Origin: Eledone cirrhosa | Taxonomy: Eukaryota | NCBI GenBank assembly: GCA_964016885.1 | Contig: OZ024743.1 | Span: forward strand, 357,306,001-357,370,000 | DNA length: 64,000 nt | Direction: 5' to 3' | Part shown: positions 21,264-52,032 of the stretch, in pieces | Layout: each line of letters opens with the position of its first letter | Numbering within the stretch: position 1 is the first letter of the stretch | Position numbers and translations under genes: made by a program | Notes under the pieces: model-generated | Databases searched by the model: none | What the model was told of the DNA's origin: nothing | The model's input: only the letters and a program-made list of their open reading frames with translations

Positions 21264-21329
21264 TTCGTCAGTGATTTTCCAACCTTCATTGGTATTTCAT
21301 CGCTTTAAAAATCATATACCTCCGGTTGG
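21264..21329 (-). ncRNA. Putative non-circularly permuted hammerhead ribozyme (A1)
   Basis: CCAACC-gga-GGUAU-A^UGAUUUU-uaaagcgau-GAAA-UACC-aaugaa-GGUUGG-AAAAUCA-CUGACGA-A. Confidence 0.7.
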
Positions 21330-21788
21330 CGCGAGCAATAGCTAAATAAAGCTATTGGGACAAGTAAATCGCGTAAAGCGAGCGAGACAAGTAAACAAAC
21401 ATAGAAGGATGATAGCAACGCAAAGATAGGAAAAAACAAGCAGCATGGGAATCCGGTCAGCTTAAGCTGGGTGGATTTCATGAGCGAGCGTAATACAGAC
21501 CGTCCGACGTGAGTGAGATGTGAGCAAGAAGAGAACCCACTACATGCCAAACGGGAGGAAGTGAGAAGGGGAGAAACAGAGAGTGAGTGAGTGGAAGTGC
21601 GAGGAAGAGGCCAGTCGAGAGAAAGTGTAACTGACAGAGAGGTCGAAAGAAGGTGAGAGAAACAGAGAGAGCAGGGAAGCAGTAAGAGAGAAACAGACAA
21701 ACGCAGCCGAGGAAAATATATATAAAAAACATGAGAAGAAAGAATACTGCGTGGTTGCACATGGGTTACATATGATAAAAAATAGTCC

Positions 21789-21854
21789 TTCGTCAGTAAT
21801 TTTCCAACCTTCATTGGTATTTCATCGCTTTAAAAATCATATACCTCAGGTTGG
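21789..21854 (-). ncRNA. Putative non-circularly permuted hammerhead ribozyme (A2)
   Basis: As A1, with one stem I G-C changed to a G-U wobble. Confidence 0.7.
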
Positions 21855-22234
21855 TGCGAGCAATAGCTAAATAAAGCTATTGGGACAAATAAATCGCGTA
21901 AAGCGAGCGAGACAAGTAAACAAACATAGAAGGATGATAGCAACGCAAAGATAGGAAAAAACAAGCAGCATGGGAATCCGGTCAGCTTAACCTGGGTGGA
22001 TTTCATGAGCGAGCGTAATACAGACCGTCCGACGTGAGTGAGATGTGAGCAAGAAGAGAACCCACTACAGGCCAAACGGGAGGAAGTGAGAAGGGGAGAA
22101 ACAGAGAGTGAGTGCGTAGAAGTGCGAGGAAGAGGCCAGTCGAGAGAAAGTGTAACTGACAGAGGGGGTGAAAGAAGGTGAGAGAAACAGAGAGAGCGGG
22201 GAAGCAGTAAGAGAGAAAATATATATATATATAT

Positions 22235-28675: not shown

Positions 28676-28758
<83 letters not shown>

Positions 28759-28831
28759 CAATCCTTATCGAGCCTTCTTCGGCTTTTGGTCTTCATAATT
28801 TTTATTACTATATATATATATGTGTGTGTAC

Positions 28832-30779
28832 AAGTCAGCAGCAGCGTAGTAAGTAAGGCAATCAAAGATATGAAGATGGGGAAGGCAACCGGTCCATCGG
28901 GTATAGCTGCTGAGATGATGAAGGCATCTGGGTCTGTAGGTCACACTATAACCACACATATTGTTAACCAGGTAATACTAGAAGGTGTCATACCAAAAGA
29001 TTGGTGCAGTAGCATAATTGTCAACTGCTACAAAGGTAAAGGTGATGCACTAGATAGAGGAAACTATAGAGGTATAAAGCTGATGGTCCAGGTCATGAAA
29101 ATAACAGAAAGAGTTATAGCACAGTTGATTAGGAACCGGGTGAAACTAGATGAGATGCAATTTGGGTTTGTACCAGGAAGAGGCACCACTAATGCCCTCT
29201 TCCTTGTGAGGCAGTTACAGGAAAAGTACCTAGCTAAAAGTAAGCCACTCTACCTGGCATTCGTCGATCTCGAGAAAGCCTTTGACAGAGTTCCACGTGC
29301 TGTAATCTGGTGGGCTCTTAGAAAACTAGGAGTAGATGAATGGCTTGTGAAAGCTGTACAAGCCATGTATAGGGGAGCAGTCAAAGTTAGGATTAGCAAT
29401 GAGTATAGCGAGGAATTTAGCGTACAGGTTGGTGTCCACCAGGGCTCTGTTCTTAGCTCTCTCCTGCTCATCATAGTCCTGCAGGCAATAACGGAGGTGT
29501 TTAAGACCGGATGCCCATGGGAACTCCTGTATGCAGATGACCTCGCACTTATAGCTGAATCTATGGTAGAACTAGAGAAGAAATTACAAACTTGGAAGCA
29601 GGGACTAGAAAGAAAGGGTCTCAAAGTCAACATGACAAAGACTAAGGTCCTTGTAAGTAGACGAGAAAACAGAACCCAGATCCCCTCAAGGAAATGGCCT
29701 TGCTCAGTATGTAGGAAAGGTGTAGGTAAGAACTCCATTCTCTGCCCAAATGCAAACAATGGGTACACAAGAGATGTAGTGGGATCTCAGGAAGCTTAAT
29801 TAAGAATGTAGGCTTCACATGTAGCAGCTGTGCTGGGACAGCAAGCAGCAAACAGCCACAGGAAACAAGTACCACCAATCTCTGGGAAGGTTCTGTAGAA
29901 ACAGTAGACAGCTTCTGCTACCTAGGTGACCGAATTAGCAGCGGAGGTGGGTGTTCAGAAAGTACAATAACTAGGGTAAGAACGGGATAGAAGAAGTTCA
30001 GGGAACTACTGCCACTGCGAGCTGCAAAAGGCTTCTCCCTCAAAATGAAAGGCAGACTGTATGATGCGTGTATCCAAACAGCAATGTTACATGGTAGTGA
30101 GACCTGGGCGCTGAAGGTGGAAGACTTACGTAGATTAGAAAGAAACGAAGCCTGCATGTTCCGATGGATGTTTAATAGTACTATACGCGAATGGCAAAGC
30201 ATAAATGAATTGAGAGAGAGACTGAGCATAAGAGGAATCAAATGCTGTGTGCAGGAGAGGCGGTTGCGTTGGTATGGACATGTGATGCGTATGAAGGATG
30301 ACAGCTGCATAAAAAGGTGCAGAGCACTAGAAGTAAATGGAAACCGCGGAGTGGGGAGATCCAAGAAGACCTGGGATGAGGTGATAAAAGCCGACCGTAC
30401 CCAATTACACCTCTCAAAGGCGATGACACACGACTGAGACCTCTGGCGTTACGCAGTAATACAGAGTACCCGACCTCCCATGGGTACAAGCTGAAGCATA
30501 TAGACAATATGCGCCCACACCCTCCCACTGCAAAGTGGTCGTGGAGGTGCCACGCCAAAAAAGCACCCAGACCACACTGTAAAGTGGACGTGTAGGCGCC
30601 ACGAAAAAGCACCCAGCACTCACTGTAAATGAGGTTGGTGTTAGGAAGGGCATCCAGCTGTAGACATCAAGCCAAAATCAGTTCCTGTATGAGCAAGGCA
30701 TGGTCAGCCGACCAGACACTGCCCACAACAGGACAACCCGTCCAACCCATGCTAGTATGGAAGAATGGACGTAAAACGG

Positions 30780-34325: not shown

Positions 34326-35601
34326 AAAGTGGTAGTGCTAGTGCCATAATAAAATGCACCCATTCCACTCTGTAAAGTGGTAGTGCTAGTGCCATAATAA
34401 AATGCACCCATTCCACTCTGTAAAGTGGTAGTGCTAGTGTCATAATAAAATGCACCCATTCCACTCTGTAAAGTGGTAGTGCTAGTGCCATAATAAAATG
34501 CACCCATTCCACTCTGTAAAGTGGTAGTGCTAGTGCCATAATAAAATGCACCCATTCCACTCTGTAAAGTGGTAGTGCTAGTGCCATAATAAAATGCACC
34601 CATTCCACTCTGTAAAGTGGTAGTGCTAGTGCCATAATAAAATGCACCCATTCCACTCTGTAAAGTGGTAGTGCTAGTGCCATAATAAAATGCACCCATT
34701 CCACTCTGTAAAGTGGTAGTGCTAGTGCCATAATAAAATGCACCCATTCCACTCTGTAAAGTGGTAGTGCTAGTGCCATAATAAAATGTACCCATTCCAC
34801 TCTGTAAAGTGGTAGTGCTAGTGCCATAATAAAATGCACCCATTCCACTCTGTAAAGTGGTAGTGCTAGTGTCATAATAAAATGCACCCATTCCACTCTG
34901 TAAAGTGGTAGTGCTAGTGCCATAATAAAATGCACCCATTCCACTCTGTAAAGTGGTAGTGCTAGTGCCATAATAAAATGCACCCATTCCACTCTGTAAA
35001 GTGGTAGTGCTAGTGCCATAACAAAATGCACCCATTCCACTCTGTAAAGTGGTAGTGCTAGTGCCATAATAAAATGCACCCATTCCACTCTGTAAAGTGG
35101 TAGTGCTAGTACCATAATAAAATGCACCCATTCCACTCTGTAAAGTGGTAGTGCTAGTGCCATAATAAAATGCACCCATTCCACTCTGTAAAGTGGTAGT
35201 GCTAGTGCCATAATAAAATGCACCCATTCCACTCTGTAAAGTGGTAGTGCTAGTGCCATAATAAAATGCACCCATTCCACTCTGTAAAGTGGTAGTGCTA
35301 GTGCCATAATAAAATGCACCCATTCCACTCTGTAAAGTGGTAGTGCTAGTGCCATAATAAAATGCACCCATTCCACTCTGTAAAGTGGTAGTGCTAGTGC
35401 CATAATAAAATGCACCCATTCCACTCTGTAAAGTGGTAGTGCTAGTGCCATAATAAAATGCACCCATTCCACTCTGTAAAGTGGTAGTGCTAGTGCCATA
35501 ATAAAATGCACCCATTCCACTCTGTAAAGTGGTAGTGCTAGTGCCATAATAAAATGCACCCATTCCACTCTGTAAAGTGGTAGTGCTAGTGCCATAATAA
35601 A
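34326..35601. repeat. 48-bp minisatellite, about 26.5 near-identical units
   Basis: Unit AAAGTGGTAGTGCTAGTGCCATAATAAAATGCACCCATTCCACTCTGT; followed by the rest of an RTE 3' end to about 35830. Confidence 0.95.
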
Positions 35602-36140
35602 AAGCATCCAGTCCAATTTGTCACCTGGTAGTATTGGTGCTACAATAAAATGCACCCAGTACACACTATGAAGTAGTTAGTGTTGGTAAAGTCATCCGGC
35701 AGTAGAAACTAAGCCAAAAATGGAAAATTTGAGTGGGATTCAGTCATCTGACAAGTCTTGCCTCAGAACATGATAACTTAGCTAACTTATGTAAGCATAG
35801 AAAAGAGATCTGGAATGGCGATGATGATGTTGAGGAAACCACATATGACAAGACTCAATATTAAATAATAACATGGTTGCAACAGAGACAGGATGGAAAC
35901 AGTTAGAACATCACTTGTTCTATAAAGCCCAACACACCATATTTGTTGTATCTATAAAATAAACTGTTCAATGCAATAGCCAAAACTTAAACAAATTTCA
36001 CACTCTCTTTTAAATGAGAACCACATGATTGTGTCCATAATTACCATAACAGAGACAAGATGACCACTTAGGAAACTACTTGATATTATTGAGTATTTCC
36101 AAATTCTTACAGTCACCCACCCCCGCCACCATCACACTCA

Positions 36141-48744: not shown

Positions 48745-48792
<48 letters not shown>

Positions 48793-49210
48793 ATGAGAAG
48801 AAAGAAGAATACTGCGTGGTTTGCACATGGGTTACATATGATAGAAATAGTCCTTCGTCAGTGATTTTCCAACCATCATTGGTATTTCATCGCATTAAAA
48901 ATCACATATATATATAGGCTTAAAATAATAATAATAATAATAATAAGAAGAAAACAAGAATGGGGGGGGGGGGAGTTTTCCTCATTATTTTTCTACTGGG
49001 GGTCTCGAATATTTCAACGCTCTAAAGACAATATATCTACCCCCAGATCATTTTATAACTTAGTTATTGGGAAAACGGAGGAGGGAGGGAAGGAAAATAG
49101 AAGGGAAAAGGGAAAAAAGGGAAGAAAAGAGAAAAACAGCGAAAAACAACAACAATTTTCCTTCCCTCCCTCCTCCGTTTTCCCAATAACTTACCCAGGT
49201 GTTGAACGCT

Positions 49211-49280
49211 CTGGAGGTAGATATATATATTGTCTTTAAAACGTTGAAATATCCGAGACCTCCAGTAGACAACTGATGAG
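49211..49280 (+). ncRNA. Putative non-circularly permuted hammerhead (B1, with a 4-nt TA expansion)
   Basis: CUGGAGGU..AUAU-A^UUGUCU..GAAA-UAUC-cgag-ACCUCCAG-uAGACAA-CUGAUGA-G. Confidence 0.6.
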
Positions 49281-49703
49281 GACCCCCCCCGTTCTTGCTT
49301 TCTTCTTATTCTTATTCTTATTTTTAGCCTAACTTAACTAGCAACTACACAGCCATTCCTATTCTCTATATATTTTATCATGTTTCGCTGTTGCCCGTCT
49401 TCTCCCTCCTTCAACCTACCTATTGCGTTGCTTTTTCTTTCTCTCCCTTTCTTCCTCTCACTTTCACTCACCCTCTCTCTGTTAGCCACCTCATTGTTTC
49501 CCTCGCCTGACCCTCTAGCAGTTCTTTTCGTTCGTCCACGCGCTCTAGAACTTATGTTCAGCCACCGATGTGGACTTGGATTTTTTTTCTTCAGGTTGCT
49601 CGCACATTCTTCGATTTGTTGTTTCTTTTCGGTGCCTTTTCCCTTCTATTTTCCTTCCCTCCCTCCTCCGTTTTCCCAATAACTTACTCACTTGTTGAAC
49701 GCT

Positions 49704-49769
49704 CTGGAGGTAGATATATTGTCTTTAAAGCATTGAAATATCCGAGATCCCCAGTAGACAACTGATGAG
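49704..49769 (+). ncRNA. Putative non-circularly permuted hammerhead (B2)
   Basis: CUGGAGGU-a-GAUAU-A^UUGUCUu-uaaagcauu-GAAA-UAUC-cgag-AUCCCCAG-uAGACAA-CUGAUGA-G. Confidence 0.7.
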
Positions 49770-49855
49770 CCCCTCCTCCCCTTCTTGCTTTCTTCTTATT
49801 TTTATTTTTATTTTTAAGCCTACCATAACTATCAACTAAACAGCCATCCTCTTCT

Positions 49856-49938
<83 letters not shown>

Positions 49939-50423: not shown

Positions 50424-50489
50424 TTCATCAGTTGTCTACTACAGGTCACAGATGTTTCAGTACATTATAGACACTACATCTATCCATAG
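50424..50489 (-). ncRNA. Putative non-circularly permuted hammerhead (F)
   Basis: CUAUGG-au-AGAUGU-A^gUGUCUA-uaauguacu-GAAA-CAUCU-guga-cCUGUAG-UAGACAa-CUGAUGA-A. Confidence 0.65.
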
Positions 50490-52032
50490 TGTGCTTATAA
50501 CATAAGTTATGAGGGAAAGAAAAGACGAAAAAGAGGCGATAGCAAAGAGAGAGAAAGAAAGAAAAGAAGAGAGAAAAAAGGAGAAAAAAAGAAAAGGAAC
50601 GCATATCGATAGAAGGAGGAAACACAGGACAATGGTACACGTAAGTAAGTAACCAAGGAGAGAGAGGAAGAAGTCAAAAAAAGGCAGTTGGGTGGGTTTA
50701 GATCGATATCCAGTGATCTCAATCTTGTTTACAATTTACTCAACAAATTCATTTGGAGCGTATGCAAAGGAGTAATGTAATACAATAACCCAGCCAGAAG
50801 CTATGAAAACAATGTAACGGATTAACTTTGGAAAAACGTTAAAGTAATCACAATTTCATCAATTGATATGTAGATAAATTATAAATAAATTTACATACTT
50901 ATTTACATGTTTAATGAATACATATTTATCCTCCTTGTGTAAATAGACCTCCATGTTGTCAAGTTCTTTGGGGTTTGTTCCACAACGAAAGTCTTATGGT
51001 TTAAACATTTCGTCTACTTGCGCAACGTAGCGAAACGTATATCTATTAAACATAGACATGTAAAATTACTTACTACTTATCCAACACACGCTGTCTTTAG
51101 GGAAATAAATAAATACACACACATGTAATGAAATAGACACCCATCGATTTTAGCAATGCGGGTTACAGTTGTTCGATCAACGGAATAGTCTGCACATGGA
51201 GTTTACGTGGAATGGCTGAACATTCCACAGACACGAATATCTTTAACATAGTTAACAAGGAGATTCAGCGTGACAAGACTGGCCTTTTGAAATCCAGGTA
51301 AGTTCTATCCAACGGGCTTCCAAACAGTTTCCGTCCACCCAATTTCACTCACAAGGCATGAGTTGATCCGAGTCTATGGTAAATGGCAGTTGCCAAAGAT
51401 GTCATGCAGTGGAATCTAACCTGAGACCTAATGATTGCGAAGCAAACAACTTAATCATTTGGTCATGCTGAGTTCACTAACTGTATTGTTTGTTTCCAGA
51501 GACTATGTTGAAAAATAAACCTCATTTGGTCATTCCATGAGAGTATCTTGGTCAACCTATGAACTTTTCAGTCGAACCTCATAAGTTCTTTGATATGGTA
51601 TATTGAAATTTCGTTTCTCATTAGAAGTTGCAGTCCCAACTTATCGAAGTTGCAGTCCCAACTTATTTATGATTACATACCTAAATAGTTACCTAATTAA
51701 AGCATAAGAAAAGGAAAAAAGAAAAGGCCCATAATTCCTAATGAAGTCGTAAGGGTTCTATCGTGACACACACGATGTGTCTTGGGCATTTTAACAGTGT
51801 CTGAACACAGCTGATTTCTTCATGAGAGGGAGAGAGAGAGAGAGAGAATTGAATTGTACTTTATTTACCGACATCGAAATGATGAAAGGCAAGGCTGACC
51901 TCGACGGGGTTTAAACTCAAAGCACAGAGAACTAGAACAATTAGTGAGGCATTTAATTTGAGTCACTAACGGCTTTGCCAATCCACTGACTTTATTTAAG
52001 GATGGTATGGTATCTTCCTATCATTATTTATG

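Follow-up and report, generated by a model that had tools for sequence, protein, structure and literature searches.

A split hammerhead-type candidate ribozyme with a conserved helix X and a predicted kink-turn in a repeat of Eledone cirrhosa

In the window, that is, the whole stretch of 64,000 nucleotides of Eledone cirrhosa DNA that was analysed, three copies of a repeat (family B) carry a rearranged hammerhead motif whose additional helix, helix X, differs among them at one base pair. The initial annotation regarded this difference as a compensatory change and as evidence of selection. Two questions are raised by this locus: does the base change itself testify to selection, and which part could the helix play in a hammerhead of such an order? 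The letters of the strands of all three copies were found at the places claimed. In B1, the strands are CUGGAGGU (49211-49218) and ACCUCCAG (49258-49265), with A49215-U49261 as the flagged pair. In the inverted copy, read on the minus strand, they are CUGGGGGU (49046-49039) and ACCCCCAG (49003-48996), and the flagged pair is G-C. In B2, CUGGAGGU (49704-49711) faces AUCCCCAG (49747-49754), so that a mismatch, A49708·C49750, is present at this position, together with a second non-Watson-Crick pair, G49710·U49748.

The family B copies of the 3.0-Gb genome (1,937 first-look candidates, 40 of which were scored) gave the direction of the change. G-C was the majority at the flagged pair in 27 other copies, and the derived A is common to B1 and B2, which share one further derived change. 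From this distribution, the order of change is read as G-C, then A·C, then A-U, the last step having occurred in B1 only. The double change had been described as going from A-U to G-C; the letters do differ in this manner, but the direction is reversed, G-C being the state of the family majority.

Exact patterns were then counted genome-wide. All four copies with the flagged A keep the partner C, and among the 76 copies with the flagged G, counted by eye, the partner is C in 69, T in 5 and G in 2; both patterns fix the remaining 5' strand, and B1 was missed owing to its AT insertion. When B1 is added, the partner T accompanies A in 1/5 copies versus G in 5/76 (Fisher p=0.33). The background of non-CpG C>T changes was 41/782 sites (5.2%). 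Within types, 732 cells contained 43 one-sided and 2 two-sided changes (0.63 expected by chance), both double changes being Watson-Crick. A second family B copy with A-U was found neither with the genome-wide flagged-A pattern nor in the subfamily listing. Furthermore, each of the three copies is damaged elsewhere: in B1, block S has gained an AT insertion of 4 nt and stem II holds a C·A mismatch; B2 is mismatched in its upstream hairpin, in helix X and in stem II; the inverted copy has a core reading AUAAUGA, a stem I mismatch and an altered upstream stem II strand. All three look like decaying insertions. Given the Fisher test, the C>T background of about 5% and this damage, the flagged change is an ordinary one, and the A-U of B1 fits a product of neutral decay for which no selection is needed. 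The compensatory change was thus not borne out as evidence of selection, and as a proof of it was ruled out by the partner counts, the Fisher test and the background. It is highly improbable that the B1 change was itself selected, as a restoration of the pair in B1 or in a small source lineage. Such a restoration could draw on the A·C state having preceded A-U, given the derived A common to B1 and B2, and on the excess of Watson-Crick double changes within types; against it stand the same test and background, the absence of A-U from the other family B copies found, and the insertion and mismatch of B1, which leave little to select.

Table 1. Coordinates of the motif in B2 and of the other copies present in the window.
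Feature	Position	Strand	Remarks
B2 hairpin directly 5' of the candidate ribozyme	49677..49697	+	8-bp stem in family majority, one C·C mismatch in B2; folds in intact copies, present across listed subfamilies
B2 upstream stem II strand	49698..49703	+	pairs with 49729-49734, one C·A mismatch; upstream of the flagged interval
B2 helix X 5' strand	49704..49709	+	6 bp with 49749-49754; A49708·C49750 mismatch
B2 predicted kink-turn, non-bulged strand	49710..49712	+	3n G, 2n U, 1n A
B2 block S: stem III strand and AUA triplet (49716-49718)	49713..49718	+	predicted cut after A49718, from hammerhead numbering
B2 stem I 5' strand plus UAA linker (3 nt) leading to stem II	49719..49728	+	stem I 6-7 bp with 49755-49761
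B2 block G: stem II 3' strand, GAAA (49735-49738), stem III 5' strand	49729..49742	+	core alignment, stem covariation
B2 predicted kink-turn, bulged strand	49743..49748	+	3-nt bulge CGA, G1b, A2b, 3b U
B2 helix X 3' strand	49749..49754	+	covariation with 5' strand
B2 stem I 3' strand, CUGAUGA core (49762-49768), next base	49755..49769	+	next base can pair with the base before GAAA
B1, decayed copy	49205..49280	+	A-U in helix X; AT insertion puts stem III and kink-turn out of register
Inverted family B copy	48981..49052	-	G-C in helix X, core broken (AUAAUGA)
Family A copy	50424..50495	-	identical layout, different covarying helices
5'-truncated E-type copy	48789..48905	-	starts inside block S, ends at (TA)n tract
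Complete-layout E-type copy, second of direct pair	21265..21335	-	canonical G·A/A·G kink-turn signature
Complete-layout E-type copy, first of direct pair	21790..21860	-	525-nt spacing
Whole family B insertion	48915..49857	.	lies among microsatellites; a 5'-truncated inverted copy precedes the partial tandem of B1 and B2

The window holds further elements. The E-type pair (21265-21335 and 21790-21860, minus strand) offers better test candidates than B1 or B2, and E-type copies are 94-98% identical genome-wide, which makes this subfamily a young one. A search of sequencing runs with an E-type unit gave no RNA run. Fragments of a reverse transcriptase frame lie at 28678-30437 (+) and are, as we assume from their motifs, RTE-like. 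A tandem array of 48 bp (34326-35658; about 28 copies, 98% identity) is open in two minus-strand frames. Finally, a pyrimidine tract (49640-49697, +) ends at the upstream hairpin; in majority-type copies it has an AG end like a splice acceptor, and its opposite strand reads donor-like. The text of PMC4209133 describes the intron of the D. virilis Penelope as ending at the ribozyme of the element itself.

Taken as a whole, the motif greatly exceeds chance expectation: a pattern of linker, GAAA, GA and CUGAUGA at fixed spacing had 17,945 exact matches in the genome versus 1 for the reversed pattern. From the loci fetched, 223 copies were taken (221 unique). In-frame copies numbered 175; the other 46, which include B1 and six members of a subfamily carrying a 2-nt insertion, were excluded because they were truncated, contained indels or had a decayed stem II or III. 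The filter used stems I-III and not helix X; the bulge length and the following GA were fixed by the pattern and the opposite strand was left free. As the core letters were part of the search patterns, the invariance of the core in these sets is not independent evidence. Eighteen types with at least two copies each cover 135 of the 175 in-frame copies.

In these 18 types, pairs X1 to X6 are kept in 17, 18, 18, 18, 17 and 15 types, respectively. In 30 hand-picked representatives, 93.3% of the 180 cells of helix X were paired, slid partners giving 12-48%, and 5/6 pairs had changed on both sides. On a tree of the 18 types that was built without helix X, 12 of the 14 possible X changes fell on shared branches, versus 2-4 of 13-16 for four slid controls. 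At the flagged position, C-G, G-C, A-U and U-A all occur among the 30 representatives, and one small type (3 copies) has A-U there as its own sequence. Helix X is thus identified from its covariation as a conserved 6-bp helix. Since this covariation lies between subfamilies, selection acted in the master elements founding each of them, while the genomic copies decay neutrally. The claim that the helix is selected is therefore upheld by the subfamilies and not by the B1/inverted-copy pair, and the covariation among more copies, on which that claim had been made to depend, was found. Rfam gave no match within the 64-kb window at gathering scores. Single-strand folding energy, a measure unfit for a double pseudoknot, gave z=+0.47 for B2, z=-0.68 for B1 and z=-1.6 to -2.5 for more intact copies.

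The positions beyond X6 are of another nature. X7 (3n·3b) is a standard pair in only 4/18 types and U·U in 9/18; X8 (2n·2b) is G·A in 13/18 types and U·A in 5/18 (family B and four other types); X9 (1n·1b) is A·G in 18/18 types, opposite a 3-nt bulge. The A at 1n, present in 18/18 types, is on the strand left free by the filter. Of the 8-bp helix initially proposed, six pairs are hence conserved and the last two positions belong to this signature, a continuous 8-bp Watson-Crick helix being ruled out by X7 and X8. A 3-nt bulge and G·A/A·G steps joining helix X to stem III correspond to the kink-turn consensus, and a kink-turn is predicted there. It resembles the Kt-23 variant in the 3-nt bulge, the following G·A and A·G or A·U, and the variable 3b·3n; according to the text of PMC2790904, Kt-23 adopts an ordinary k-turn fold with A·U at 2b·2n. 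In contrast to known kink-turns, the one of the Eledone motif would join a hammerhead stem III to a clamp between stems I and II, a use for which no example was found in our literature search. In family B, with U at 2n and A at L3, the predicted kink-turn is non-standard, which counts against the kinked fold. In a family B-like subfamily (L080, L086, L106, L108, L116, L119 and L123), two extra bases of the non-bulged strand stand between the G·A step and stem III, which provides a natural test of the kink geometry.

Concerning the fold as a whole, the features of a hammerhead are in register in B2, namely CUGANGA, GAAA, the U-A pair and an NUH triplet (AUA), and the U16.1-A15.1 pair was present in 30/30 representatives. 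Two-sided changes affect 6/7 pairs in stem I, 4/5 in stem II and 3/5 in stem III; the stem filter favoured copies with stems I-III, by which the percentage of paired cells is inflated, and the pair-type changes less so. We describe it as a scrambled hammerhead-type motif and a candidate ribozyme that would cut after the AUA triplet. Along the RNA, the hairpin is followed by one strand of stem II and one of helix X; then come block S, UAA and block G, and after the kink bulge the second X strand, a strand of stem I and CUGAUGA. The block order S-G-C with a short I-to-II linker is that of type SGC. Helix X continues the stem II strand and leads on to the stem I strand, separated by 0-1 nt, and joins the far ends of stems I and II; by this position it is assigned to the "interaction helix" that connects stems I and II in hammerheads with a non-circular permutation. 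The helix had been proposed to tie stem III's distal end to stem I', a link that is right; the upstream stem II strand (49698-49703) and the kink-turn signature had been missed.

It is in stem II that the layout departs from the published ones. The inner 4 pairs made by the upstream strand are kept in 17-18 of the 18 types (copies pre-filtered for stem II), and 4/5 pairs show two-sided changes. For the first stem II pair, the base after CUGAUGA is a possible partner in 13/18 types and the upstream strand in 6/18. As the 4-bp body of stem II is supplied from upstream, the chain is cut inside block C, right after CUGAUGA or one base later, and the block boundaries described in print are not where it is broken. 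A plain type-SGC fold, in which bases after CUGAUGA alone would build stem II, was ruled out, since at most the first pair can be formed in this way (13/18 types). No GT donor by which splicing or back-splicing could bring CUGAUGA to stem II was present after the core in the copies seen.

According to the text of Eckert et al. (2023; PMC10085705), the helix joining stems I and II is needed for cleavage in type SGC (HRIMA-1 and variants), a 3-nt I-to-II linker is typical of this type, block C is assumed to be uninterruptible, and the distance problem posed by a I-II helix tied to the far end of stem III is left open; the non-circular permutations presented there come from environmental sequence, with one weak bacterial candidate. 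The Eledone motif shares with type SGC the S-G-C order, the 3-nt linker and a fourth, I-II helix tied to the far stem III. However, stem II and the interaction strand, which follow CUGAnGA in type SGC, are located 5' of block S in the Eledone motif, block C being split; both strands of helix X connect to stem III by way of the kink-turn signature; and the motif lies in an animal genome, whereas the SGC RNAs of that text are from metatranscriptomes only. The word "kink" has 0 matches in the supplement text of PMC10085705. By analogy, we infer that the Eledone motif would work like type SGC, but it fails the feature of an uninterrupted block C. From the text of PMC4209133 and of bioRxiv 10.64898/2026.07.22.740005, a likeness to the minimal type I hammerheads of Penelope-like elements and non-LTR retrozymes is also seen in the 3'-terminal place in a Penelope-type repeat, the tandem non-autonomous units, the unpaired base after CUGAUGA and a possible need for two copies; these hammerheads differ in a weak or missing stem III, where the Eledone motif has a full stem III and a non-circular order. 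Non-LTR retrozymes are matched in their tandem non-coding units but not in their type I hammerhead. A split-block or kink-turn hammerhead in animal retroelements was found in no paper at the level of the text, and the figures and alignments of Eckert 2023 or subscription papers may hold one.

The repeat unit that carries the motif is non-coding and about 500-700 nt long (tandem units, 568-706 nt). Units occur in partial tandems and with inverted 5'-truncated copies beside (TA)n, a direct pair being present in 23 and an inverted pair in 23 of the fetched stretches of 111 loci. These arrangements are described as a Penelope-like pattern in the text of PMC8557442; since other Penelope clades share it, it is not specific to Naiads. 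No Naiad reading frame (N-terminal GIY-YIG, C-terminal reverse transcriptase) was found beside any copy examined, and the 30 best GIY-YIG loci and 20 long-frame loci had only C-terminal-endonuclease or unclassified frames. As candidate parents, the GIY-YIG elements were rejected, having given the C-terminal-endonuclease type, as were the reverse-transcriptase frames downstream of L015, L021 and L069, which have 3' ends of their own without the motif and are likely TA-tract neighbours. The repeat is non-autonomous, and a dependence on Naiads is probable. Several C-terminal-endonuclease Penelope elements of the Eledone genome have type I-like cores. In L226, L227 and L228 (contigs C1 and C5), Penelope-like open frames of 844-1096 codons from stop to stop, partly microsatellite-derived, encode a reverse transcriptase followed by GIY-YIG and possibly were active recently. 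In L247, L268 and L188, head-to-head inverted copies end within or just before block S, near the predicted cut site. Older divergent versions of the motif with equal spacing are numerous genome-wide, and most of those fetched are 5'-truncated.

The link with Naiads comes from the supplement of PMC8557442, in which 60 of the 62 CUGAUGA places were read by eye. Naiads are reported by Craig et al. (2021; PMC8557442), in the text available, to be without canonical hammerheads, 8 being flagged "HHR_half_core". By eye, the split layout was recognized in seven Naiad records: Naiad_Obim, Naiad_Ovul, three around Acropora entries, and those before Naiad_Dcar and Naiad_Ppla. All seven have a full 6-bp stem II from an upstream strand and G-C next to GAAA. 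The Naiad_Obim and Naiad_Ovul tails match the Eledone motif in layout, spacing and kink-turn signature, and (TA)n insertion with tandem and inverted 5'-truncated copies, described for Naiads in the text of that paper, is common to both groups; in contrast, the Eledone units are non-coding and no linked Naiad frame was found. In addition, an old copy in the Eledone genome (L273), found by a pattern not derived from PMC8557442, shares the letters of the stem II 3' strand, GAAA and stem III with Naiad_Obim. A DNA search with this copy gave flank matches only, and a genome pattern modelled on the Naiad_Obim stem I gave 0 matches. Two further Naiad records have the CSG order, an unbroken block C and the same X helix. 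Among the Naiad tails, two, one of them the record before Naiad_Hcon, can be read by eye as type-CSG hammerheads that are complete, carry a GUC triplet and have a I-II helix of 9 bp or 15 bp; type CSG had hitherto been published from only two metagenome sequences.

What could helix X do in such a fold? In the mechanism that we propose, it would act as a clamp holding the far ends of stems I and II together. The predicted kink-turn would fold it back away from stem III, and a single RNA copy might thereby form a closed cage and self-cleave just 3' of the AUA triplet. Self-cutting would then process tandem transcripts of the Penelope-like repeat, which is non-autonomous and probably depends on Naiads. 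For the kinked family, single-copy closure with a kinked X clamp and self-cutting is given nearly an even chance, the kinking, the closure, the cleavage and the role in tandem transcripts each being a presumed step. The text of PMC5061560 gives a bend to about 50 degrees for k-turns. In a stick model with coaxial stems III and II, 2.8 A per layer and a kink of 40-60 degrees, a gap of 20-35 A is left in a single copy between the end of helix X and the top of stem II, and exact closure needs a core bend of 51-101 degrees. Strand ends lie about 9 A off the helix axis. Together with one unpaired base, these off-axis ends could absorb much of the gap, and the break after CUGAUGA may free stem II. 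The pairs beside the top junction are the loosest of all, II.6 being paired in 11/18 types and I.7 in 6/18; as a tight closure predicts slack, this counts for closure of a single copy. With the off-axis ends, the open II.6 and I.7 and a freed stem II, the single copy would be strained but might still close. The helix ends had been said to lie far apart in the canonical fold, and this difficulty is real, being the gap of the stick model and a point raised for type SGC in the text of PMC10085705. By hand count, helix X falls 3-5 layers short of stem III, core and stem II in the Eledone motif, and the shortfall is equal in a CSG Naiad with a 15-bp X, a tail in which, by eye, stem III has 10-11 bp and is joined to helix X by 0-1 nt. 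This equality suggests that the length of helix X tracks the distance to be spanned, which favours one-copy closure.

The same parts could also be assembled from two RNA copies. In a domain-swapped dimer, the 20-nt loop of the X-kink-III hairpin of each copy, which comprises the cut site, the stem I strand and the stem II strand, would pair with the flanks of a second copy, e.g. the next tandem unit, and cutting would be limited to multimeric RNA. We consider this a real possibility, if on balance a doubtful one. In the stick model the dimer closes two-fold at any helix lengths, with a kink turn of 130 degrees, about 50 degrees at the I/II/X junction and no bend between III and II; the X-III hairpin is the predicted fold of intact copies, direct pairs occur in the 23 loci mentioned above, and minimal Penelope-like hammerheads are described to cut as dimers (text of PMC4209133). 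Two Naiad records, read by eye, point in the same direction: stem III has 10 bp, helix X 5 bp and the bulge 1 nt in the record before Naiad_Ppla, and the values are 6 bp, 9 bp and 3 nt, without G·A pairs, in the record before Naiad_Dcar. Such hinge-less, near-continuous 15-bp rods of X and III could hardly fold as single copies with helix X intact, and pairing between copies therefore looks necessary in these Naiads. However, one-way pairing between copies needs neither a strictly kept kink-turn nor fixed helix lengths, and in the coral Naiad tails a repeated segment, seen by eye, lets the X/III junction slide and could suit single-copy closure. Extended to the whole Naiad type, the idea would make the split-block hammerhead an obligate swapped dimer, a ring of two ribozymes with two kink-turns here and a straight form elsewhere, which cuts tandem transcripts only; SGC, CSG and split orders would each correspond to opening a single closed circuit of strands at a different point, the split one being the middle of a tandem CSG pair. 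This extension is somewhat unlikely.

It is distinctly unlikely, moreover, that the conserved fold is not mainly a self-cutter, and that it serves instead as a protein-binding or priming structure (15.5K/L7Ae-type, or for reverse-transcriptase loading) or has helix X as an off-state helix that melts before cutting. The U·U at 3b·3n with U at L3, present in many types, resembles box C/D kink-turns, 5/18 types have a weak pair or none beside GAAA, and AUA is the commonest triplet (10/18 types); the published Penelope hammerheads are also slow in vitro, according to the text of PMC4209133. Nevertheless, CUGAUGA, GAAA and U16.1-A15.1 are in register with three covarying stems, as catalysis requires, the core letters being part of the search patterns, and, in the texts of PMC4209133 and PMC8557442, ordinary Penelope hammerheads commonly have UA cut sites and, following CUGAUGA, an additional base or a mismatch.

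The flagged base change is thus an ordinary one, and helix X is the most informative part of an unusual candidate ribozyme. The kink-turn is a candidate answer to how a I-II helix ties to stem III, and the approximately 18,000 copies in one animal genome form a natural covariation series for a form that breaks the assumption of an uninterrupted block C. For the Naiads, the split layout would explain the reported absence of hammerheads.
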